Origin: Pseudomonadota bacterium
Lineage (GTDB): Bacteria > Bdellovibrionota > Bdellovibrionia > Bdellovibrionales > SG-bin7
NCBI GenBank assembly: GCA_034439715.1
Contig: JAWXAY010000032.1
Location: forward strand, 1-15,600
Direction of reading: 5' to 3'
DNA: 15,600 nucleotides
Of this stretch, positions 1 to 13,548 are shown piece by piece (positions within the stretch are counted from its first letter, which is position 1; every line of letters begins with the position of its first letter). The translations under genes were made by a program, and so were the position numbers. The notes beneath the pieces are model-generated. The model searched no databases, had not been told where the DNA came from, and saw only the letters and a program-made list of their open reading frames with translations.

Positions 1-94
1 AAGACTTGCAAGTCGTGGTGAACAAGTGCCAACACCACTCGAACACGCCCGCAAAACTCGAGCCGCATAGTCAATAACCGCCCTTATGACTTGG

Positions 95-805
95 TTACAA
101 TAGGTCGATGACATGACGAAGTTGTTTCAAGCCATCCTTAAGAGGAGCGAGACGTTTGGAAGGAATGTTTTGAAAGTGTTCTTTGTTGTATGTAGGAAGG
201 CACTCCAACAAGTGGGCGACTCGTGCTTCAATTCCACTCATCTCCATTTCAATCTGACTCACCTCTCCAGTTAAAAGCAAAGTCTCTTCATCAAACTCAA
301 AATTTTCTGTCTCAGCCATATCGGCTTCTGTCAGGGCTTCCACTTCGGCGATGGCTCGTAAATTTTGATCTGACTCTAGTGAATTCAATTCTTTTGAAAG
401 TTCATTTCGCGTGAGCTTGCCAGTTAAAACTTCGACCGTGAGTTCAGCATATTTAGGTTCCGAGATATTCTGTTTCGCCAAGAGAAGTCGGTAAGCCGTA
501 TCCCAAGGAATCTTGTTGGGCTTTAGATTTTCTATGTGCTTGCGGTATTCATTCAGAACCGACAAGTGTTTAGAAATGGTTGAATAATCAAAAGAGAACT
601 CTGTACTACAATAAGCCTCGAAGGATTTGTGACCTTGTGCTTTGAATGATTTGTGTTCTCTGATTGTTTCCAAAGTTACCCAGAAAATCAAAAGACCTTT
701 CTGACAGTCGGCAAATCTTTCTTTTGCCTTCAATAGCAAGGTTTCATCTTGGTCATTCCTTCTCGTTAATTTTGTGTCTGTTTTAGGATTGTTGGTTGTT
801 GTCAT
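95..805 (-). CDS. Hypothetical mobile-element protein, putative DNA-binding (DUF3102-like segment)
   Basis: 236-aa ORF; GHKSFEAYCSTEFSFDYSTISKHL resembles the 'G-x-x-SFEEYC...HTH' segment common in phage/plasmid proteins; overlaps upstream gene. Confidence 0.6.
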   Translation of the reverse strand: MTTTNNPKTDTKLTRRNDQDETLLLKAKERFADCQKGLLIFWVTLETIREHKSFKAQGHKSFEAYCSTEFSFDYSTISKHLSVLNEYRKHIENLKPNKIPWDTAYRLLLAKQNISEPKYAELTVEVLTGKLTRNELSKELNSLESDQNLRAIAEVEALTEADMAETENFEFDEETLLLTGEVSQIEMEMSGIEARVAHLLECLPTYNKEHFQNIPSKRLAPLKDGLKQLRHVIDLL

Positions 806-1151
806 TTAATCTCCCTTGGCCTCTTGAAAAGTTGCGCGGCGCAACTTTTTTCTCGCCACTTACTGATTCTGAGTTAATCAGCTTTCTATGCTTCCGCTTT
901 TCAGTTTGAGTCATTTGATAGGGACGGTATGGATGGAGTGGACAAATCACTATCGAACAGTCGCGGATGCGCGAAACGGCGTTCTCAAATGCCATGCACT
1001 CGTGGCACTTCATTTTGAGGACTGCCGCTCGACCAGCTTTACCAATGAGCACTTTTTCAAGTCTTTTTTGAATTGGTGCCGGAGCCCTCTGTATGTACTC
1101 CCTTATTTTCTTGTCGTTATCATCAACCGTGATTTTCTCGGCTATTTTCAC
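783..1151 (-). CDS. Small phage-type zinc-finger protein
   Basis: KMKCHECM...IRDCSIVICPLHPYRPY (CxxC...CxxxxCPLxPYR); 4-nt overlap with rep-like gene. Confidence 0.7.
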   Translation of the reverse strand: MKIAEKITVDDNDKKIREYIQRAPAPIQKRLEKVLIGKAGRAAVLKMKCHECMAFENAVSRIRDCSIVICPLHPYRPYQMTQTEKRKHRKLINSESVSGEKKVAPRNFSRGQGRLNDNNQQS

Positions 1152-2083
1152 TTCAAACCTCGCTTTCTTATGAGTCCTGGGACTCTGTTAAACATCTTGG
1201 ACTCCCCAACGGAGAGCGGAGCTGACAGAAACTTGTCGAGGCGTTTCTGGAACTTGCCGCCAAGATCGTAGTTAGTGGAAATACGATATTTTTCTATTAC
1301 CTTTTTCATGCGATAAAAGTTTGAGCCGTCAATCCTTCGGAGTTGAGCCTCGGCTTCTTTTTGTCCACACACGTTAGAGAGAATCTGAAATAGGAGAATA
1401 TCTTTCCGTTGACTTGGCTTCGCCGCACTCACGTCGAATCCATAAAACTTGATTCTTCTGAATGGGTCCCTGATTTTCCAATACTGCGAAGCCTCACTAA
1501 ACCGAACTCCAATTTTAGATTCGTTGAGTCTTAATTCGATTCTTGTAGTAGGATTTTCGGGGCATTTACTCTGATGCCAGTGATGAGCATCATAAACGAC
1601 AACCTCGGTGCGAGTGGGTGAACCTAGATATAGACTCTCAGTCACGGAACCAAACTCAAGTGAGGTTGTTAGACGATAACGCCCATCCGTTCTCGAAAAA
1701 CCTCTTACGCGCATACCTCGCCGAGTGCGAGGAGTGTATATTTCAGCTTTGACCGTGTTGTATTCGGTGCCAACAAGATCAATGTTTAAGTGTTCACGCA
1801 ATATTTTAGGCTCGTCGAAGTCATCTACTACTGCATTTGTGAGAAGCTCACTAGCACGGAATGACGAGAACCCATTCGGATTAAAATCAATAACGGTGTA
1901 AGGAGCTTTAACCTTATTGTTCGTATGAAAGTAAACTCTTTGTCCTGTCACGAGAGTGGCAACAAACTCGTTTGTATAGGGGAACTTTGGTCTATACTTG
2001 TGTTTGATGTCTGCTATTAGAAGCAGATTCTTCATAAGAATTTTTTGTTCAGTCTTTAGAACTATCATATCAATCACCGCCAT
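1148..2083 (-). CDS. Divergent Rep_trans-superfamily replication initiator/relaxase-like protein
   Basis: IDFNPN, ILREHLNID (cf. isRxDxAxD), ESLYLGS...VVVYDA (cf. TxYxGS...xYdK), TRIELRL, in the order typical of Rep_trans. Confidence 0.6.
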   Translation of the reverse strand: MAVIDMIVLKTEQKILMKNLLLIADIKHKYRPKFPYTNEFVATLVTGQRVYFHTNNKVKAPYTVIDFNPNGFSSFRASELLTNAVVDDFDEPKILREHLNIDLVGTEYNTVKAEIYTPRTRRGMRVRGFSRTDGRYRLTTSLEFGSVTESLYLGSPTRTEVVVYDAHHWHQSKCPENPTTRIELRLNESKIGVRFSEASQYWKIRDPFRRIKFYGFDVSAAKPSQRKDILLFQILSNVCGQKEAEAQLRRIDGSNFYRMKKVIEKYRISTNYDLGGKFQKRLDKFLSAPLSVGESKMFNRVPGLIRKRGLK

Positions 2084-2267
2084 AGATTGTTCTCATGCTC
2101 ATCATATTGATGTAGTTGGAGTTGCCTGTAGAAAGACTGAATCGGTGAAACACGCTACTACTTTGCCTCGAATGCCGAGGAAGCAAGCCGACACAGGTGA
2201 AGTGAAAATGTCCGGTTAATTTTTTTGGAGAAGCCGTCTTTGGCTTACCGTGATTCGTCTCTTCCAT
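2070..2267 (-). CDS. Small hypothetical protein
   Basis: Fills operon gap, overlaps neighbours; ATG 2267 preceded by GGAAGGACGGCAGG. Confidence 0.3.
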   Translation of the reverse strand: MEETNHGKPKTASPKKLTGHFHFTCVGLLPRHSRQSSSVFHRFSLSTGNSNYINMMSMRTIYGGD

Positions 2268-2469
2268 CCTGCCGTCCTTCCGATTTATCAATTAGCTCTA
2301 AAATTGCGCCTTCCAGGCCATCTCGCCCGAACACTGACATTATTTTGCTGCGAAGGAGCATCCAATGAGGCGATGCACCCGCAACAACTTCAGCGGTATC
2401 GAGAAGAAATTTTCGGTGGCTTTTTAGTTCTTGGATGATTTGTTCGAGATCGTGTTTTCTAATTGCCAA
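2245..2469 (-). CDS. Small helical hypothetical protein
   Basis: 74-aa ORF, TTG start preceded by AAGGACGGACGG; protein-like amphipathic composition. Confidence 0.6.
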   Translation of the reverse strand: MAIRKHDLEQIIQELKSHRKFLLDTAEVVAGASPHWMLLRSKIMSVFGRDGLEGAILELIDKSEGRQDGRDESR

Positions 2470-2595
2470 GCCGTCCGTCCTTTCAAGCTCAATGAAGTAA
2501 CGGGCTTATAATAATCGAATTTGAATTTTCCTGTTTGATGTGGTCTGAGCGATAACTTTGTAAGCTGGAGTAAGACAGATTTGCAACATGGCTAA

Positions 2596-3213
2596 CTAAG
2601 TCAGATTCTTAATCCATGTCCTAACGGTTTCTTGAGGAAGAATAGCATCGTGAGCACAAGCAATGCCGTTCAAATCGAGTTTTATTCTCCAGGTAATAAT
2701 CTCGGTCAAATATCTTGCTCGTGCTCTGGTGAGCTTGAGAACGTCACCCCAAAATTTGTTACTATCGACCCGTTGCAGTTCTTCATTGAAGTTGCGTACA
2801 AGTGAGCGAACCGTCCCATGGTCAATGTAACAGTTCTTTCTTTTAACTGGCTTCATTCTACTCCTCTTTTCAATTAGAACTTTTTCTTCTCGCCGTGTCC
2901 TTCCATCCTTTTTCGTTTGGTCGTTTTCGTCTGTTTGCATGATTTTGCCGAAACGCTTCCGAAACGGAATAGCACGTTCGTTGAAAGGAGCACTACAGGG
3001 CCTTTTCTTTGGAGCAGGAATTGCCAAAGCAAAAACATTTGAGTTTGGATTTTGAACCAATTCGCTCAGGCAAAGGCAACTTACTACAACGCCGCTGAGG
3101 TTCGATCTACACTTGAGATCAAAAGCCTCGATCTCTTTAATATTAGGTATCTCGTCCCGAAGGAAATTAAAATTGTAGCGTTTGGAATGTCGAGCTTCAT
3201 TTTTTATTTTCAT
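2596..3213 (-). CDS. Hypothetical basic protein
   Basis: Long ORF co-oriented with operon; ATG 3213 preceded by GGATGGACGGACGGACGG. Confidence 0.5.
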   Translation of the reverse strand: MKIKNEARHSKRYNFNFLRDEIPNIKEIEAFDLKCRSNLSGVVVSCLCLSELVQNPNSNVFALAIPAPKKRPCSAPFNERAIPFRKRFGKIMQTDENDQTKKDGRTRREEKVLIEKRSRMKPVKRKNCYIDHGTVRSLVRNFNEELQRVDSNKFWGDVLKLTRARARYLTEIITWRIKLDLNGIACAHDAILPQETVRTWIKNLT

Positions 3214-3245
3214 CCGTCCGTCCGTCCATCCATTCAACCCGCGAT

Positions 3246-3428
3246 CTATACTTCGATAGTCAAATTCTTATCTGCCAATGCCGACTCCAAGATGGCAGCA
3301 ATTAGACTCTGCCTTGTGACTTTTTCTTTTTTTGAAAGCCGATCAAGTTTTTGCATGATGGGCTTGGGGATTCTTACGGTGACCGTGCTTAGTTCATCAC
3401 CGCTGTACGAGCGTTTCACTATTTTCAT
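3246..3428 (-). CDS. Ribbon-helix-helix (CopG/Arc-like) DNA-binding protein
   Basis: TVTVRIPKPIMQKLDRLSKKEKVTRQSLIAAILESAL; GAGGTG SD upstream of ATG 3428. Confidence 0.8.
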   Translation of the reverse strand: MKIVKRSYSGDELSTVTVRIPKPIMQKLDRLSKKEKVTRQSLIAAILESALADKNLTIEV

Positions 3429-3473
3429 TTGTTTCACCTCTCATTGCCTCAGTATGACGGATGGTGAACCAAA

Positions 3474-3493
3474 TGCAATCTAAACAGATTGCA
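3474..3493. promoter_or_regulatory. Perfect 8-bp inverted repeat, putative operator
   Basis: TGCAATCT-aaac-AGATTGCA, plus a further AGATTGC copy at 3497-3503; overlaps the -35 box. Confidence 0.6.
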
Positions 3494-3517
3494 AATAGAT
3501 TGCGCAGCGCGTATAAT
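3489..3517 (+). promoter_or_regulatory. Sigma70-type promoter of recombinase gene
   Basis: TTGCAA-17 bp-TATAAT, 6 nt upstream of ATG 3524. Confidence 0.75.
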
Positions 3518-3523
3518 AAAGGA

Positions 3524-4147
3524 ATGAAGCCAAAACGCTATATTCTATATTTGAGAATCTCGACCGCTGAACAGAACAGCGATCTTCAGCGTCGGGAACT
3601 AGTTGAATACGCAAACCGACGTGGATGGACGTATGAAATTCTTGAAGACAAGGCGAGTGGCACCCATGCAAATCGTCCCGCACTTCAGAAGCTCTTACAG
3701 TTGGCTCGAAGCCGTAAGATTGATGGGATTGCCGTGTGGAAGTGTGACCGACTGTTTCGCAGCTTGAAACACGCGGTTGTCACATTGGCAGAACTTACCG
3801 AGCTTGGTGTTGAGTTTTATAGTCACAAAGATCAGATTGACCTTTCCACTTCCACGGGTCGGTTAATGGCAAATATGCTCATGGCATTCGCGGAGTTTGA
3901 AGCCGACCTTATTAAATCTCGCGTCGTTTCAGGACTCCAGGCCGCCAAAGCGAGAGGCGTCCAGCTAGGCCGTCCTAAGATTGTAAATGACGAAGTTATT
4001 CGGCAAGTGTTGGATTTGCGATTCAACCGTAAGTTGTCCATTCGTCAGATAAGTGAAGCACTAGCGCACAAAGTTTCAAAAACAAGTATCGAAAGAATCT
4101 TAAGAGATAACGACCCGTCAAAACCCACTTTAAAAAAGTCGGTTTAA
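3524..4147 (+). CDS. Small serine recombinase (resolvase/invertase family) with C-terminal HTH
   Basis: YLRIST catalytic Ser motif, SG...RPALQKLL, DRLFRS, GRLMANMLMAFAEFE, GRP + HTH (LSIRQIS). Confidence 0.95.
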   Translation: MKPKRYILYLRISTAEQNSDLQRRELVEYANRRGWTYEILEDKASGTHANRPALQKLLQLARSRKIDGIAVWKCDRLFRSLKHAVVTLAELTELGVEFYSHKDQIDLSTSTGRLMANMLMAFAEFEADLIKSRVVSGLQAAKARGVQLGRPKIVNDEVIRQVLDLRFNRKLSIRQISEALAHKVSKTSIERILRDNDPSKPTLKKSV

Positions 4148-4239
4148 GGGACGGATAGATTTCATCCTGAGTCCATCTTGCCACTCAACTTTGACCACTC
4201 AGAAAACTGTAGTTTTTGGCGGAAGCCGTAAGGAGATGT

Positions 4240-5094
4240 ATGCGCGTATTTTACGACAAGAGACAATCAGTCAAGGACAACCAGAGTTTCTCACCAAGCT
4301 CTCAGAAGTCTGCGTTGCTTGCAGCGGAGTGGAAGAGACTGGGACTTCCCGTGGACATTCAAACTTTCAAGCCCGCGACTCGAAGCGAACTCTATCAAGT
4401 ACACGACCGTGAGTATGTGGATGGCGTTCTCGATCTTAACCGTGACAATGGTTACGGCAATAGAAATCCAAAAGTCGCTCAGTCACTTCCGTGGGTCGTC
4501 GGTTCATTCCTCAATGCTGTGAAGTATTCGATGAAGACTCGACAGGATTCATGGAGTCTCACATCGGGTGCCCACCATGCCCATAAATCGTACGGTTCGG
4601 GTTTTTGCAGTTTTAACTTTCTCATGCTTGGAGCACTCGCTGCTAAGAATCTGGGAGCAAAGAAAATAATTTTGATCGACCTAGATCGTCACGCGCCAGA
4701 CGGATGCCGACAGATTCAAAAAGAAATCGGCCTAAGCGAGTTAAGTATCTATGCCTTCGGCGATCAAATGCTCCAGACGGTCGAAGATACCGAAGGTTGG
4801 CTCAAGAAATTGCCGCCAATTTTACTTTCGCTTTGTGACGGAGCCGATCTTGTTTTTTTCAATGCTGGAGTAGACCCAGCAACGACGGATTTTTTGGGCG
4901 GGTTGATGACTGCCGAACAAATGTCTCGCCGAGATCGCCTCGTCTTTGAAACAGCAAAGATGTTTAATGTGCCCGTCGTTGTCTCTCTCGCGGGCGGTTA
5001 CTCTCGTGACAGTAAAGGAACCCCTCGGCCCACAGTTGAATTGCATACAGAGACGATGCGGCAGCACCTTTTAGTTCACGGAGTTCAATCATGA
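4240..5094 (+). CDS. Histone deacetylase (HDAC/AcuC/APAH) superfamily Zn-dependent amidohydrolase
   Basis: VHDREYV, GAHHA, GSGFCSFN, DLDRHAPDG, NAGVDP, LAGGY; AGGAG SD before ATG 4240. Confidence 0.92.
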   Translation: MRVFYDKRQSVKDNQSFSPSSQKSALLAAEWKRLGLPVDIQTFKPATRSELYQVHDREYVDGVLDLNRDNGYGNRNPKVAQSLPWVVGSFLNAVKYSMKTRQDSWSLTSGAHHAHKSYGSGFCSFNFLMLGALAAKNLGAKKIILIDLDRHAPDGCRQIQKEIGLSELSIYAFGDQMLQTVEDTEGWLKKLPPILLSLCDGADLVFFNAGVDPATTDFLGGLMTAEQMSRRDRLVFETAKMFNVPVVVSLAGGYSRDSKGTPRPTVELHTETMRQHLLVHGVQS

Positions 5095-5519
5095 CATCGC
5101 ATGAAACTATTATCGAATGCGCCAAGCGGCTTATTGAGCGAAATGAACTGGCTCGCGCTATTAGGTTGTTAAACAAAGCAGCGAAATGGTTTCCGCGTGA
5201 AGTAAACATCTGGAGGCTACTCGGTGTGGCTCAAGGAAGTAGCGGCAATCATCTAGGTGCTCGTGCTGCATTCTTAGAGGCCGTCGATCTTAATTTAGCC
5301 GACATTGATGTTGCCAATTTAATCACGACCTTCTGGCCGACCGACGAAGCAAAACAGGGCATTGAAATTTTGGAATCGCAGTTTGAAAGTCTTAGCCCCG
5401 CAGCAAAAGAAATTGCGATCAATAGTGTTTGCGAAGCAATGCGAGTGGGCGTCCTACAGTTCGACTGGCTTCCATCCGTCGTCCAGCAACATTACGTCAC
5501 GGTGTACGGCAAGCCGTAA
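5091..5519 (+). CDS. TPR-repeat protein
   Basis: AIRLLNKAAKWFPREVNIWRLLGVAQGSSGNHLGARAAFLEAVDL TPR pattern; ATGA overlap with HDAC gene. Confidence 0.75.
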   Translation: MTSHETIIECAKRLIERNELARAIRLLNKAAKWFPREVNIWRLLGVAQGSSGNHLGARAAFLEAVDLNLADIDVANLITTFWPTDEAKQGIEILESQFESLSPAAKEIAINSVCEAMRVGVLQFDWLPSVVQQHYVTVYGKP

Positions 5520-5535
5520 TACTGTACGGCTTGTC
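5508..5535. terminator. Stem-loop at end of HDAC-TPR operon (no U-tract)
   Basis: CAAGCCGTA (5510-5518) / TACGGCTTG (5525-5533) inverted repeat. Confidence 0.35.
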
Positions 5536-5602
5536 GGATATTCAGACGACTAGTCGTTGCTGCGTGGACTGCAATTAAAAAAGGGAGAACGATATTAGGT
5601 TC

Positions 5603-5899
5603 ATGGAAATTAAGATTGCCAAAAGTTTGACCGCACTTATGAAGCAACGAGGACTCTCATTGAGAGAGTTGTCGAAGCTCAGTGGTGTTCCTCCCACGAC
5701 GCTGAATGAGTGGCTATCGAATCGTCCACCTCGTAACCCAGTGCAAATAAAGAAAGTCGCTGAAGCGTTGGATGTGTCACTCAACTTTCTATTGTTCAAC
5801 GAAGAAGACAAACACGACCCACTCCAACGAATTTTGGTTGAGGATATATTCTCTGGAAATTTTCAGATCACTGTAAAGCGGCTGAAGTTCGATAAGTAA
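5603..5899 (+). CDS. XRE-family HTH transcriptional regulator
   Basis: LMKQRGLSLRELSKLSGVPPTTLNEWL...KVAEALDVSLNFLL. Confidence 0.92.
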   Translation: MEIKIAKSLTALMKQRGLSLRELSKLSGVPPTTLNEWLSNRPPRNPVQIKKVAEALDVSLNFLLFNEEDKHDPLQRILVEDIFSGNFQITVKRLKFDK

Positions 5900-5914
5900 A
5901 GGAGTGGGCAAATT

Positions 5915-6964
5915 ATGAATAAATTGATTTTACTTTCTATTATTTTGTCGTTGACGGGATGTGCCTCAGTCACTCCACAACAGGAGTCCGCTCGCAATGC
6001 ACTTCAGGAAAAACATTTTTATAAGTACGACTCTCATGAGGATTTTTTTCAGGCGATTGAGAAAAATAATTTGGCGGCGATCAAATTATATTTGGCATCC
6101 AGGGACAGCTATCCTTATAGCTCAAATACAGATCGTGAAGACCTAGAAACCATAGGGTGGTACGCGATGGAGCGAGCGTTAAATAAGCCGCCGATTCTAA
6201 CTGAGTTTCTCAAATTCAAGGTCACCCAGCAAGGTGCGAAGGATATGGTCTGGTCAGAGTGGAAAGTGAAGTGCCCTGAAAGTCGAGACGAGATATTTGA
6301 AGCATTGCTGAAATACGGCGGGAGTCCCAAAAACCCAAGTCGGGCCGCCCACAAGCTCGTCAACAATGGCTGTGTTGACGAATTAAAGAGATATTTGGCA
6401 CTTTATCCAGCGGGCGCACGGGGATTTTATACCGATTCCTACACCCGATTTGGAATTAGGTACGATGCTAATGATGGAAGCTCTACCATCGACAAAAAGA
6501 AGTACGATAACTACCTACAAATCGGGGCAATACTAAGAGAAGGAAATGAAAGGGAGTGCCAAGCTAAGGTCTTAGAGGCTTGCAAAGCCAATAGTGAACT
6601 GAATGAATATATGATCGCACTTAAGTCCAAATATGACTTATGGGTGACAGAAGAAGCCAAAAGAAAAGTAGGCGAAGCAGAGTTCGAAGCCGAAGCAAAA
6701 AAACAGGAGAAAGATGAAGCCAGCGGTAAATATGATTTTGACCGCGCCTGTGGAGCCTTAAATCAAATCGAGTTCGATAAACGCATAATTGCCGATGAGA
6801 AAAAAATCACCGCTCAATCAGGCGTGGTGAACAAAGCTGTTCTTTATGAAACGACCCGTCGCTTACAGGCAGACTATGGATTCCTGGACCACTTAAAGAA
6901 AGAATACAAAAAGAAGTCCGGCAAGGCATTCAATCCAAAGGACTGTGGTAAGGACAAGCAATAG
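5915..6964 (+). CDS. Lipoprotein of unknown function
   Basis: Signal peptide with lipobox LTGC; GGAG SD; weak ankyrin-like segment (IFEALLKYGG). Confidence 0.8.
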   Translation: MNKLILLSIILSLTGCASVTPQQESARNALQEKHFYKYDSHEDFFQAIEKNNLAAIKLYLASRDSYPYSSNTDREDLETIGWYAMERALNKPPILTEFLKFKVTQQGAKDMVWSEWKVKCPESRDEIFEALLKYGGSPKNPSRAAHKLVNNGCVDELKRYLALYPAGARGFYTDSYTRFGIRYDANDGSSTIDKKKYDNYLQIGAILREGNERECQAKVLEACKANSELNEYMIALKSKYDLWVTEEAKRKVGEAEFEAEAKKQEKDEASGKYDFDRACGALNQIEFDKRIIADEKKITAQSGVVNKAVLYETTRRLQADYGFLDHLKKEYKKKSGKAFNPKDCGKDKQ

Positions 6965-7071
6965 TTTTAAGGGCAGGCGTAGTGAACAAGGTTGTCGCCG
7001 AACTCACCAAACAACACGACGAATCTGAAGATCAAGACTGACTCTACTTTTCTACGTAGAAACTTTTGCCG

Positions 7072-7653
7072 CTATGCACCCTCATTCATTGCCGTTCGCT
7101 GTTTCCATTCGCGTTTGATTTCAATCAACGTGATGACATCGTCGTAGGTGAATTGATCGACAAGGGGGTCCGACTTCAAGTCCCGTGGTGGTTCGCAAGA
7201 GTGTATTGGCGAACAAGGCTCAGAGGTCTGCGCTGTACGCCGTTCAATCTCAGGTGCAATTCCCAATGCTTTCATGGCGACGGTCTGAGTGGTTTCAAGG
7301 CTTCTCATGTAGTCTACGAGTTCCTTGGACGAGAGCCTTCCTTTTTCACCCTTCACGGATAAGTCTCGCATGGTAAGTGCCGCTCCTAACTTTGCCGTCT
7401 TGAAGATTTGGTTATTGGTTTCGAGTGCGTCTTGCAGGAGAGCATCTTGCTTCGCCGAAAGTACGTTATTCTGAAGTTCTTGTCGTCGGGTATTCCATTG
7501 CAGGGCGGGTGCTTGCTGCATGACGTATCTATATCGCCGAGGCGTGAAGCCCTTCACATTGATAAGGAAGTCTCGAACAGATTTGTTCGCGTGGTTGGAG
7601 GCCCATTCAAACTGTAGGTCGTGAATCGAATTTACAACCTCACCCCTCGCCAT
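7072..7653 (-). CDS. Hypothetical phage-like helical protein (possibly terminase small subunit-like)
   Basis: AAGGGAG SD before ATG 7653; N-terminal HTH-like region followed by coiled coil; family assignment weak. Confidence 0.5.
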   Translation of the reverse strand: MARGEVVNSIHDLQFEWASNHANKSVRDFLINVKGFTPRRYRYVMQQAPALQWNTRRQELQNNVLSAKQDALLQDALETNNQIFKTAKLGAALTMRDLSVKGEKGRLSSKELVDYMRSLETTQTVAMKALGIAPEIERRTAQTSEPCSPIHSCEPPRDLKSDPLVDQFTYDDVITLIEIKREWKQRTAMNEGA

Positions 7654-7964
7654 TTTATCTCCCTTGTATGCCACGTCTGTACCATGCAGTGGCATCTCTT
7701 CTTCGGAAGACCGCGATCAATTCAGGTAACTTTCAGTAACCTCTTGTCTTGGACTCCGCAGGTCACTGGGACCGTTGGGTGTCCATAGGGCCTGATTGGC
7801 GAGCGAGTCGCACAGCGAGATGAAGAAGTCGAACTCAACATTGCTGTGACCTGATCATGCCCACGCTATTACTTCTTTGACCAGTTGGATTAACGCATCC
7901 TATGCTGAAATCCTGCGTCACAACATGAGAGACTGGAAAAACGGATGGAACCCTAGAGAACGGA

Positions 7965-8588
7965 GTGGGCGTCATTAAATCATTGCGTCCTAACTTCATT
8001 GTCGGCATTGGCGGCTCGGCGGGTGGTCTTAGCGCATACAAGGCGTTCTTGGACTCTTTGCCGTCTGATACTGGTATGGCCTTTGTCATTGTTGCTCATC
8101 TCATGCCCACCGCCAACAGTCAGTTGGCGCAAATTCTGTCACGTCACACGAAGATGAAAGTATCCCTGGCTTCTGCGGCGATGCCGATCTTCGCGAATCA
8201 CGTCTACGTAAATCAACCGAACGCCAAGATTCTAATTGAGAATTATACCTTCAAAGTTATTTCCCCGCTAACTCGTGAGGTGAATAAGCAAATAGATTTG
8301 TTTTTGACTTCATTAGCTGAGGCTATGGAGAAAAATGCGATTGGCATTATCCTCTCTGGTTCTGGCAGCGACGGCTCTGAAGGATGTAAACAAATCAAGG
8401 CAAAGGGCGGAGCAACCTTTGCTCAGGACAAGTCTGCCGAATTTACCGGAATGCCCGTCAATGCTCAAGCTACAGGCTGTGTTGACTTCGTTCTGCCTCC
8501 CAACAAAATTTCAGAAAAACTACAACGCTTGGTAAGCCCTTCACTAAATAAATGGCGCAGATTAGCGGCCAAGCAGGCTAAAAAATAA
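7965..8588 (+). CDS. cheB: Stand-alone CheB-type methylesterase domain
   Basis: GIGGSAGG, VAHL, ILSGSGSDG, MP..A, VDFVLPP; no receiver or CheR domain. Confidence 0.9.
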   Translation: MGVIKSLRPNFIVGIGGSAGGLSAYKAFLDSLPSDTGMAFVIVAHLMPTANSQLAQILSRHTKMKVSLASAAMPIFANHVYVNQPNAKILIENYTFKVISPLTREVNKQIDLFLTSLAEAMEKNAIGIILSGSGSDGSEGCKQIKAKGGATFAQDKSAEFTGMPVNAQATGCVDFVLPPNKISEKLQRLVSPSLNKWRRLAAKQAKK

Positions 8589-8646
8589 GTTTCTTTGGGC
8601 TATTATTGAAAACATGAAAAAAGAGTTCGTTGTGAGCAGCTTGGTT

Positions 8647-9273
8647 CTAAACTGCTTTTTTAAGCCAAATGATTTTTAACGGATTCTTAGCAATGTGTGA
8701 TTCACACCACTTCCTTGAACCCAACTTAAGGGCGATTTCTTTAGGTGAAAGAACGAAATCTACATGGTCAATTTCTATCGCCGCAATCGGCATTGATTCC
8801 GAAGCCGCAGTTGCAGGAGTTTGGGCCATGGTCATGCCACCTTTTTCCTTCAATACTTTAAGTCCTTCTGCGCCATCAGAACCTTCTCCAGAGAGAATTA
8901 TTCCAATGGACCCGCGAGCCTGATCGGCAGCTAAGGACAATATGAAATGGTCAACCGCGCTGTTCACTCCTTTGTCTGGGCGACGAATGAGAAGAAGCGA
9001 GTCGTCTTTGATTTCCATAAACTTATCAGGCGGCAGAATATAGATGTGATTAGCGACGAGTTGCTCCCGATGAGTGACTTCAACGACTGGCATTTTTGTC
9101 GAGCGAGAAAGAATCTCAGGAAGTAGGCTCTTTGACCCTCGCAGAACGTGAGAAAGTAAGACAAACGCCATTCCGGTATCGGTCGGCAGGTTTTCAATAA
9201 GCTCCTGAAAAGCGGCCAAGCCGCCAGCGGACGCACCGATTGCAACCACACATGGATAGTCTAATTCTTTCAT
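8647..9273 (-). CDS. cheB: Stand-alone CheB-type methylesterase domain (second copy)
   Basis: AIGASAGG, LSHV, ILSGEGSDG, SMP, VDFVLSP. Confidence 0.9.
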   Translation of the reverse strand: MKELDYPCVVAIGASAGGLAAFQELIENLPTDTGMAFVLLSHVLRGSKSLLPEILSRSTKMPVVEVTHREQLVANHIYILPPDKFMEIKDDSLLLIRRPDKGVNSAVDHFILSLAADQARGSIGIILSGEGSDGAEGLKVLKEKGGMTMAQTPATAASESMPIAAIEIDHVDFVLSPKEIALKLGSRKWCESHIAKNPLKIIWLKKAV

Positions 9274-9379
9274 ATCTTTGTTTACTCCGCCTTGCATCAA
9301 CCTGACCACACTTATTCAAAGCCAGGTGGAGAGGAATCAAAACAAGGCCATTCCGATGCGGTCAATCTCTGATAAGCAA

Positions 9380-9922
9380 CTAGAGAATGCGTCCCAAAAT
9401 CTGTGGGTGAAGTTTAGAAGCCTCGTCCTTACCTGACTTGTGGGTGACGGCAGTTTGGCCGTCAGGGTCCGTTCGGCCAAGGACTCGCCTGACCATTTCA
9501 GGATGCCATTGTTGACCTCGACGCTTGGTAGGAACTCCGGTGCTGCTCATGTATTGAGCGACTTGCCTGAGACTCATTCCCTTTTCACGTAGTTCTCTTA
9601 TGGCTTTGACTACTCTTTGTTCCCCCAAATGAGGACCGAGACGACCATTTACGATGCGGTGTCCATAAGCAGGTTGAGCGGGTTGCCCGTGAGGCTTATG
9701 CGAAGGTCTTCGCTCAATGTTGTGCCGCTTCAGGTTGGCCCGAACGGCTTCTTTTGAGGAACTTGTTTGTGACGCGATCTGGGCGATTGATAGCTTTTGA
9801 ACGGTGTATTTTTCGGTGAGGAAGCCCTTGTCTTTGTATTCGGGCGAATGTAGTTTCTGAGATGTATCAACAACATAGGCGGTTGAGGAACTTTCGTGTT
9901 TTCTGGCTTCGTCTTCCCGCCA
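9380..9922 (-). CDS. Start-less 180-aa ORF: HTH + serine-recombinase-type DNA-binding module
   Basis: Frame is open from TGG at 9922 (WREDEARK...LSIAQIASQTSSSKEAVRANLKR...PAYG...EQRVVKAIRELREKGMSLRQVA...VPTKRRGQQWHPEMVRRVL); in-frame TAA at 9926-9928; first ATG/GTG/TTG is only at 9628. Confidence 0.75.
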   Translation of the reverse strand, partial: WREDEARKHESSSTAYVVDTSQKLHSPEYKDKGFLTEKYTVQKLSIAQIASQTSSSKEAVRANLKRHNIERRPSHKPHGQPAQPAYGHRIVNGRLGPHLGEQRVVKAIRELREKGMSLRQVAQYMSSTGVPTKRRGQQWHPEMVRRVLGRTDPDGQTAVTHKSGKDEASKLHPQILGRIL

Positions 9923-9927
9923 AATTT
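9914..9927 (+). repeat. att-like site 1
   Basis: TTCCCGCCAAATTT; CCCGCCAAATTT shared with site 2. Confidence 0.65.
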
Positions 9928-10038
9928 ATTTTAATTTTTCCTTTCTCTGAATTTTTCATTTTTTATTTAGAATCTATTAACAATTTTAACATTTTGAGAA
10001 TGATTTAGGGACTTTGATTCTCCAGCCACTATTCCACG

Positions 10039-10093
10039 CAAAATCATACAAAATCATGGCAGTTGTAGTTCTTTTGTAGTCCGCGAACTACAA
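10039..10093. repeat. Cluster of short direct and inverted repeats, possible recombinase arm/binding sites
   Basis: CAAAATCAT x2 (10039, 10049); TTGTAGT x2 (10063, 10074); TTGTAGTTC/GAACTACAA inverted pair (10063-10071/10085-10093). Confidence 0.55.
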
Positions 10094-10109: not shown

Positions 10110-10319
10110 GCCGACTCCACGAACCTGAAGCATCAGGGCTTCAGTTGTGGGCATGATACCTGCCATTTCAATTAAAGTTGTGTCGTGAAATATCAAATAG
10201 GGCGGAACTCTATTTTCCTTAGCAAGTCTCTTTCGTACATTTTTAAGTTCAATAAATAATTTCTGAGAAGAATTATTTTTTCGAGCTGGAAACTTCCCGG
10301 CCCGATCTTTACGGCAAGA
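10110..10319 (-). pseudogene. HRDC domain fragment (RecQ C-terminal type), no start codon, truncated after GVG
   Basis: Manual translation: QKLFIELKNVRKRLAKENRVPPYLIFHDTTLIEMAGIMPTTEALMLQVRGVG; lacks the following K..KYG helix; not in ORF track. Confidence 0.85.
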
Positions 10320-12868: not shown

Positions 12869-12894
12869 AGTAAATTAGCTAATTGGAGATTAGA

Positions 12895-13128
12895 ATGAAA
12901 ACTTTAGCATTAAGACAAATTGGTAATTCTCAAGGGATCATTTTAGAAAAAACGATTTTAGAGCTGATTGGTGCCGATCAAAAAAATACCGTATTTGCTA
13001 TTCGGGTAGAAGACGGAGAGCTAATTCTTCGCCCTCTAAATGCCAAGGAACAAAAAGAAATGATAAAGAGAGCTGCAAAGGAGATTACGCAGGAACAGGC
13101 TCCCATTTTGAAAAAACTGGCAAAATAA
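12895..13128 (+). CDS. AbrB/MazE-family antitoxin
   Basis: LRQIGNSQGIILEK...VEDGELILRP; GGAG SD; C-terminal LKKLAK typical of Doc-associated antitoxins. Confidence 0.9.
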   Translation: MKTLALRQIGNSQGIILEKTILELIGADQKNTVFAIRVEDGELILRPLNAKEQKEMIKRAAKEITQEQAPILKKLAK

Positions 13129-13548
13129 ATGAACATAAAAATTGTCGGTTACATCTATCTAGATGAAGACGATGTTAAAGAAATCCATGATGATCAGATA
13201 TCTAAATTTGGTGGCTCTCTAGGAATACGAGACCATGCTGGCCTGGCAAGTGCAGTGGCTTAGCCACAAATGACCTATGGGAAAGAAGATTTGTATGGGG
13301 ATGTCTACGCTAAAGCTGCGGTTCTAGCGCACGGAATTTCAGAGGGACAACCATTTGTAGATGGAAATAAAAGGACAGCACTGGTATCTGCTTTGGCCTT
13401 TCTAAAAGTAAATGGTCATGGTGTTCTCCCGGCTGAGGAGCGCTTGTATGAGGCTATGATAGGAATTGCAAACAGAAAGACTTCTAAAGAAGACTTAGCG
13501 CAACTTTTTCGTGAGCTGGATTGCGAATTTAATACTCGAAGGGATTAA
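13129..13548 (+). pseudogene. doc: Doc (Fic-family) toxin interrupted by in-frame TAG at 13261-13263
   Basis: MNIKIVGYIYLDEDDVKEIHDDQISKFGGSLGIRDHAGLASAVA*PQMTY...QPFVDGNKRTA; ATG directly follows antitoxin TAA. Confidence 0.88.

Follow-up and report, generated by a model that had tools for sequence, protein, structure and literature searches.

Canonical large serine recombinases (LSRs), such as those of phiC31, Bxb1, and SPbeta (SprA), combine a Resolvase with a Recombinase domain and act on an inverted-repeat attP around a two-base crossover, attributes in which the family described here resembles them. In the canonical systems, attP lies outside the integrase gene, and a separate small protein sets the direction of the reaction. 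A different layout, with attP inside the gene, has published precedents in Mx8, DsiB, and the rumA ICEs. In the Mx8 and Mx9 systems (IntP/IntX), attP is found inside the integrase gene, and integration of Mx8 swaps the C-terminal 112 residues of the enzyme for 13 and alters its activity (PMC4701971, PMC6070905). The family described here resembles Mx8 Int in having attP within the integrase gene and a C terminus that would change on integration. As portrayed in those papers, however, Mx8 Int is a tyrosine recombinase, whereas here the enzyme is an LSR and the part that would be lost is a helix–turn–helix (HTH) domain plus a second, half Recombinase (RD) domain.

The Dehalococcoides ssrA islands encode a CcrB-like LSR, DsiB, that overlaps attL at its 3' terminus and enters ssrA in antisense, and its authors suggest that full function may be limited to the circle or to copies flanked by an island that supplies the 3' fragment (McMurdie et al. 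2011, PMC3146451). DsiB is described there as acting in a six-gene module with DsiA, and that account of it names no appended domain and gives no frame test, though the paper's supplements could bear on the tail. In contrast, the family here has a defined two-domain module of ~150 residues, and its targets include many tRNAs. Serine integrases of streptococcal ICEs and IMEs at rumA and snf2 also have attP inside the integrase gene (PMC4701971, PMC5357655); these elements use protein-coding targets with a reciprocal 3' exchange, and the accounts of them in those sources mention no extra DNA-binding domain. In the archaeal suicidal integrases (SSV1, pTN3, pT26-2), integration at a tRNA gene splits the integrase gene and leaves its parts at opposite ends of the element (PMC8371274). 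According to the account given there, these are tyrosine recombinases, and it is the separated part that bears their catalytic domain, whereas the serine-type enzymes here keep their catalytic and main DNA-binding domains in one piece and part with an accessory module. Engineered integrase–RDF fusions are reported to show that a C-terminal fusion can set direction (PMC5737554). Searches of largely open-access full-text literature yielded no account of a ~150-residue tail that combines an HTH with a half RD, of frame tracking, of internal boxes, or of this Bdellovibrionota family, and the relevant passages of PMC12884075 contain nothing on att sites within integrase genes.

The window analyzed here is a stretch of 15,600 nt, contig JAWXAY010000032.1, and all positions given below are positions within it. 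On the minus strand it contains a 180-codon frame that has no start codon (9380..9922), established from the reading of its ORFs, Pfam, AlphaFold, and a frame match with the LSRs of relatives. In the order of the minus strand, a TAA stop (9928-9926) and an ATT codon (9925-9923) precede TGG CGG, which begins at 9922, and the frame closes with TAG at 9382-9380. The first ATG, GTG, or TTG in frame is a TTG at 9628, and 98 codons without a start precede it. A sequence-only reading of this DNA had claimed just such a frame, opening at TGG CGG with TAA two codons upstream, and had also claimed that it encodes an HTH plus a recombinase-type DNA-binding module; both claims hold. The Pfam profile PF07508 (Recombinase) aligns with residues 102-154 at E 6.3e-7, scoring 30 bits where the cut-off is 21.1, and the HTH matches are weak (HTH_38 at E 0.0034, GcrA at E 0.016). 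An AlphaFold model from a 33-row alignment, with a mean pLDDT of 83.3, shows a three-helix unit at residues 33-67 and a hairpin with three helices at 89-150.

The three-helix unit is an HTH-like domain (9725..9829, minus strand; pLDDT 94-98 by block) that lies entirely upstream of the first common start codon. The second unit (residues 86-150; 9476..9670, minus strand) is the N-terminal half of an RD, the DNA-binding domain of LSRs, and is recognized by PF07508, by a profile match to SprA/YokA 172-246 (E 0.035), and by Foldseek, where the best matches are LSR–DNA complexes (E 0.03-0.07). When the PDB was searched by sequence and by fold, no match reached E ≤ 0.001; those obtained were to the integrase RD or, weakly, to HTH proteins. 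The catalytic Resolvase domain (PF00239) was not found in the frame with Pfam, and no RDF family in Pfam or NCBIfam matched the tail. The PF07508 match is confined to profile positions 3-54 of 102, and the frame is a fragment and not a whole LSR.

The frame is most readily explained as the detached, attR-side 3' part of an LSR gene that contains its own attP, a reading that is given a probability of about 0.78 from sequence comparisons; the design is supported for the family, and it is probable for the window copy. In an LSR gene of this kind, attP would lie some 150-180 codons short of the 3' end. Sequences of relatives show insertion at the final bases of tRNA or tmRNA genes, with the tail stranded at the opposite end behind the att core and in most cases lacking a start codon. 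When the two ends are rejoined at the core, an LSR, a linker, an HTH, and a half RD are restored in one frame. A free circle, or a tandem neighbor in the same frame, would encode a long enzyme and an integrated copy a short one.

The att core TGGCGG (9917..9922, minus strand) is the antisense of a tRNA 3' end, the reverse complement of its CCA end. Comparison of tRNA ends indicates that the target is probably tRNA-Asp, where a 7-base match beats the 6-base match to tRNA-Ser, and tRNA-Asp is targeted in four relatives (L044, L101, L209, L210). The crossover is likely at the last two bases of the core, 9918-9917, since the arm symmetry in paired relatives centers on core positions 5-6. The element-side half-site (P' arm) would run over the linker codons of the tail at 9878..9916 of the minus strand, an extent taken from relatives. 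Just beyond the core in the outer flank, the ATT codon and TAA stop (9923..9928, minus strand) are not conserved: ATT stands before TGG in 4/21 same-frame relatives and a stop codon in 2/21. Initiation at ATT 9925, the outcome that the sequence-only reading had set against itself, is therefore rejected as a nonconserved feature with only a weak AAGGA ~13 nt upstream. A break near 10110 was also considered as the att site and rejected, because the junction in the family is the TGG core in 90 junctions and the break has no second copy. At this break lies a lone HRDC fragment (10110-10319, minus strand; PF00570, E 4e-15) that is broken after GVG. The fragment, which is followed by a short inverted repeat (10074-10093), has no further copy in the assembly.

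The family is common in the Bdellovibrionota. A single-protein query matched 23/61 relatives and a profile matched 154/301 genomes of the phylum at E ≤ 0.001, although some of the weak matches could be to ordinary LSR domains. Most of the named loci belong to Bdellovibrionales, Bacteriovoracaceae, and Oligoflexia, and a viral collection gave one weakly matched locus. There are 90 distinct junctions where the frame starts at an antisense tRNA or tmRNA end; ten further domain matches, with no core called or at a locus edge, were left out. The distance from core to domain is mostly 53-56 or about 43 nt in the 90 junctions, and the frame of the domain relative to TGG takes three values, designated W (21), G (50), and L/M (19). 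A stop codon occurs between the TGG core and the domain in 2/90 junctions, compared with 112/180 alternative-frame readings of the same stretch, and upstream of TGG the frame closes within an equal length in 60/90. The linker thus stays open as far as the core but not beyond it.

The junctions bear on a rival explanation, in which the tail is a separate small DNA-binding protein, RDF-like or regulatory, made from its own or a junction start, by coupling or by frameshift, with the fusion an inherited by-product. Among L/M-frame junctions, the nucleotide that precedes the core completes an ATG in 10/19 and a TTG in 7/19, as a separate protein would need. However, 26/71 of the W- and G-frame junctions lack ATG, GTG, and TTG over the whole stretch between the upstream stop and the tenth codon of the domain, and in the window even the near-cognate codons ATT, ATC, CTG, and ATA are absent from codons 2-46 of the 181-residue frame, a region that includes the first HTH helix.

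The partner genes bear on this rival as well. The LSR genes of relatives read antisense into tRNA or tmRNA genes, and all three frames are represented. The window's own genome has three intact LSRs that run into an att core (C49, C52, C102), and the frame of an integrated LSR stops within a few to about 45 codons of antisense tRNA. Each LSR was paired with the innermost family frame of the same orientation on the same contig and joined to it at core position 5. The attP rebuilt in this way gives one open frame in every one of the 20 pairs within a contig (W in 6, G in 11, L in 3), with joined frames longer than the LSR part by 105-181 residues. This agreement over three frames is not predicted by the rival, which overall is judged improbable. 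The claim that the partner would be an LSR whose gene enters the other att core is supported in relatives.

The exact permutation p for the 20 pairs is 7e-8, a value that is overstated because related elements share frames. With five cross-contig or interrupted pairs added, four of which match, the frame match is 24/25, compared with a shuffle mean of 9.6 and maximum of 21. The one mismatch (G015, tRNA-Arg) sets a G-frame LSR against an L-frame tail on a different contig with an arm symmetry of 8. Non-cognate joins among the first 12 pairs are in frame in 60/132 cases, and for 6/20 pairs the regions were taken before the LSR frame was known. Left out of the count were G002:C48, with its LSR cut by the contig end and no core; G021, with opposite orientation; G046, with the two parts 1.4 Mb apart; and regions without an LSR in range. 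Gains in individual pairs include 151 residues (G163) and 105 (L058, in frame with a partner that is itself truncated). The end of the LSR and the start of the tail form an inverted repeat centered on core positions 5-6, as expected of what should be the two halves of an attP. Arm symmetry in 12 pairs has a cognate mean of 14.75 of 27, compared with 9.0 for non-cognate joins, and two of these pairs are at background.

The partner LSRs have Resolvase and Recombinase domains in all five scanned, as well as in P0053 and P0117, and some carry a zinc ribbon. LSRs that target tRNA genes without a tail found by these queries also exist (e.g., G003 and G058). The nearest complete analogue of the window is an 11-kb element at tRNA-Asp (L210, from G286), which has a W-frame LSR and a W-frame tail in the window's layout; this tail is 39% identical to that of the window. 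The window tail is also in frame behind two non-cognate W-frame tRNA-Asp LSRs. A complex prediction with one cognate LSR fragment and its tail gave a weak score of 0.41 against a best control of 0.00. This lends weak support to the preferred reading and to the separate-protein rival alike, and it may reflect likeness to solved LSR structures. Runs agreed on at least 65% of contacts, and partner pLDDT was at least 64. The mark used for such predictions is reached by 116/157 solved and 2/215 mismatched pairs, and at scores of 0.60 or under it is reached by only 18 solved pairs and both mismatches.

Six natural fusions of an LSR with a tail are known, which together represent all three frames: P0049 (691 aa), P0053 (671 aa), P0117 (737 aa), and open frames in G223 (753 aa), G215 (793 aa), and G235 (657 aa). 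P0053 is in the W frame, and its tail is 47% identical to the window's. The G223 fusion is a hybrid at a tandem junction. It comes from a stack of three LSR elements at tRNA-Pro (G223:C2, 5.5-50.4 kb; L180-L182), one of them bearing conjugation-like genes, that yields this one in-frame hybrid enzyme and one out-of-frame junction. At two loci, G235:C4 (L183/L184) and L067:8236, an upstream frame continues into a family tail and no TGG core can be recognized, and the full LSR fusion in G235 is possibly a permanently long form. All of these fusions are known as sequences and not as excised circles.

Five direct abutments of an LSR and a tail are out of frame (C83, L048 J1, L048 J2, L087, and G223 J2). 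Because P0049 joins a B-type LSR to a B-like tail (51% to the B type vs 46%/43%), the out-of-frame abutments are read as junctions between different elements, which is not proof. On the L048 and G223 contigs, every LSR has a further tail, away from the abutment, that is in frame and matches its arm, and this fits tandem stacking. Arm symmetry at L048 J2 and L087 is 20 and 17, compared with a background 99th percentile of 16, so that these two could be own-element junctions that need a frameshift. These high-symmetry junctions, which include a T6 run, speak for a separately made tail, and so does C83 of the window's own genome (G000 C83:2791-4537, minus strand), where the stop codon of a 5'-truncated LSR overlaps an ATG-started family tail out of frame. 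The core of C83 is of the tmRNA/Ala type. At the L048 locus (1-7710), a 6-kb primase-bearing element occupies precisely the core that separates another LSR from its in-frame, arm-matched tail; the arrangement is either a composite circle or an insertion nested in attP.

Tail frames also occur apart from any LSR. In G321, four or five tandem cassettes by tRNA-Pro carry tail frames without an LSR directly in front, and the genome (93% complete) has no LSR by PF07508. The frames of these copies are open, with pS 0.15-0.27 and pN 0.07-0.08. Three copies without an LSR in G163 are likewise open (pS 0.41-0.50, pN 0.06-0.08), and in most LSR-less copies there is a stop shortly upstream. A pN well below pS in copies that have no LSR is what a separate protein would show. 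The claim that the full protein could be made only as a fusion is too strong for the family as a whole, because LSR-less copies stay open and L/M junctions supply starts. The G321 cassettes (G321:C1, about 149-170 kb; L197-L199) lack an integrase and are integron-like. Each consists of a conserved non-coding left arm, an att core, an intact tail frame, and cargo, which in several is made up of paralogous secreted-looking proteins.

Selection on the tail differs between its parts. Over 13 disjoint pairs, dN/dS is 0.21 for the HTH (residues 21-75), 0.04 for the RD half (100-150), and 0.78 for the linker, where pS is depressed. The conserved residues of both domains mostly have free synonymous codon choice, which along with the dN/dS of 0.21 indicates that the start-less HTH is selected as a protein. 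Two exceptions with fixed codons, F35-L36 and S56-S57, coincide with copies of a hexamer, TTCCTC. In the window, all on the minus strand, box 1 lies in the linker 33 nt from the core (9885..9890; hexamer count), box 2 at codons F35-L36, 100 nt from the core (9818..9823), and box 3 at codons S56-S57, 162 nt from the core (9756..9761), the latter two identified from codon usage and hexamer count. In the family, box 2 uses TTC for 39/40 Phe and CTC for 49/58 Leu, and box 3 uses TCC for 40/47 and 35/55 Ser. The first 200 nt of 63 sequences contain 91 copies of TTCCTC, compared with 12.9 +/- 3.6 in synonymous shuffles with codon weights drawn from the same family. Box 1 is mirrored in some LSR ends, with GAGGAA at -27 to -29 in 3/41. 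From their distribution, the boxes are candidates for a protein-binding array in the right arm of attP.

A role for this array can be proposed at somewhat less than even odds: The tail would bind the TTCCTC boxes 33-162 bp into the right arm of attP, an attP-specific grip that would favor integration, and integration would in turn take this extra grip away from the long enzyme. A less favored view keeps the fusion and makes the tail an autoregulator or circle-maintenance factor, with the boxes bound to block attP transcription or to aid partition; granted the fusion architecture, it is considered unlikely. The HTH does resemble regulator and repeat-binding HTH families, integrated LSRs retain their catalytic and Recombinase domains without the tail, and the boxes extend up to 162 bp from the crossover, whereas characterized serine-integrase sites are reported to need 40-50 bp. 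However, the attP arm contains box 1, which has a mirrored counterpart in some LSR ends, and a recombinase-type DNA-binding domain makes up the second half of the tail. The architecture would be the same as in the preferred reading and the function alone would differ.

A broader proposal, more speculative than the attP-grip role itself, extends the idea of an LSR gene with an internal attP to the whole phylum. LSRs of this family would set their own direction without an RDF by means of a circle-only tail, composed of an HTH and a duplicated half RD, that binds three boxes in its own coding sequence within the attP arm, and cassettes with the same tail would stack at tRNA genes, moved by integrases in trans or in tandem or lending tails to them. 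If the split-gene design is correct, the domains that a serine integrase contains would change with its recombination state, which would offer RDF-free direction control. LSRs mined from integrated elements would be the short form, ending in antisense-tRNA residues, and integrase screens for genome engineering may therefore be assaying the wrong protein. In the Bdellovibrionota, many short proteins annotated as "recombinase family" would be detached tails that mark element ends.

For the window's own copy, the proposed reconstruction of attP succeeded in relatives and not in the window itself, because its LSR was not found in the assembly (95.7% complete, in 111 contigs). None of the assembly's 2031 TGGCGG sites has an LSR end that mirrors the window arm, and none of its LSR pieces fits the window tail. 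Two specific partners were rejected: an LSR remnant at tRNA-Ser in C15, which has the same frame but an arm that is not mirrored, and the genome's own tRNA-Asp (C58/C47) as the far end, where the following sequence is not an LSR end. In contigs from the sequencing runs (4 of 9 runs), starts at 9924 and 9921 occur in two runs, but no loose end or joint at these positions is among those listed, and the run contigs are not counted as evidence. Among the public sequencing runs listed for this DNA, none is of RNA. A second element in the same genome does pair, with its tail in C10 and its LSR in C49 at tRNA-Asn, 12 shared bases, and both parts in the W frame.

The contig starts in a 98-bp repeat (1-98) that is common to the ends of C80 (both), C10, C3, and C76 and is probably an IS end; the far end of the element is consequently unlinked. 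Both the far end and the LSR are absent from the window, and since the LSR was not found in the assembly, the window copy may be an orphan. It could also be a dead relic of a decayed element that is never translated and has merely inherited its openness, which fits with the missing partner, the repeat at the contig end, and the broken LSRs and broken tail copy elsewhere in the genome (C15, C83, C48). For this copy, however, decay is judged unlikely: The frame is intact, with 13/13 invariant family residues and all three TTCCTC boxes present, and with the assembly in so many contigs, the partner may simply be unassembled.

The probable interior of the element (1..9379, no strand) was delimited by annotation, with membership in one element taken from the orientation in relatives. 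It contains two CheB genes, an XRE HTH gene, a deacetylase-like gene, a small resolvase, an RHH gene, and uncharacterized ORFs. The CheB methylesterase genes are stand-alone and convergent and lie directly behind the tail (7965-8588, plus strand, and 8647-9309, minus strand). Toward the start of the contig (95-4147), the small resolvase (3461-4147, plus strand) diverges from a minus-strand run of RHH and uncharacterized ORFs, of which the ORF at 1148-2083 and others have no match in Pfam or NCBIfam; this region may be a nested element. In the outer flank on the other side of the core, a MazE-like antitoxin gene is paired with a Fic/Doc gene (12883-13548).
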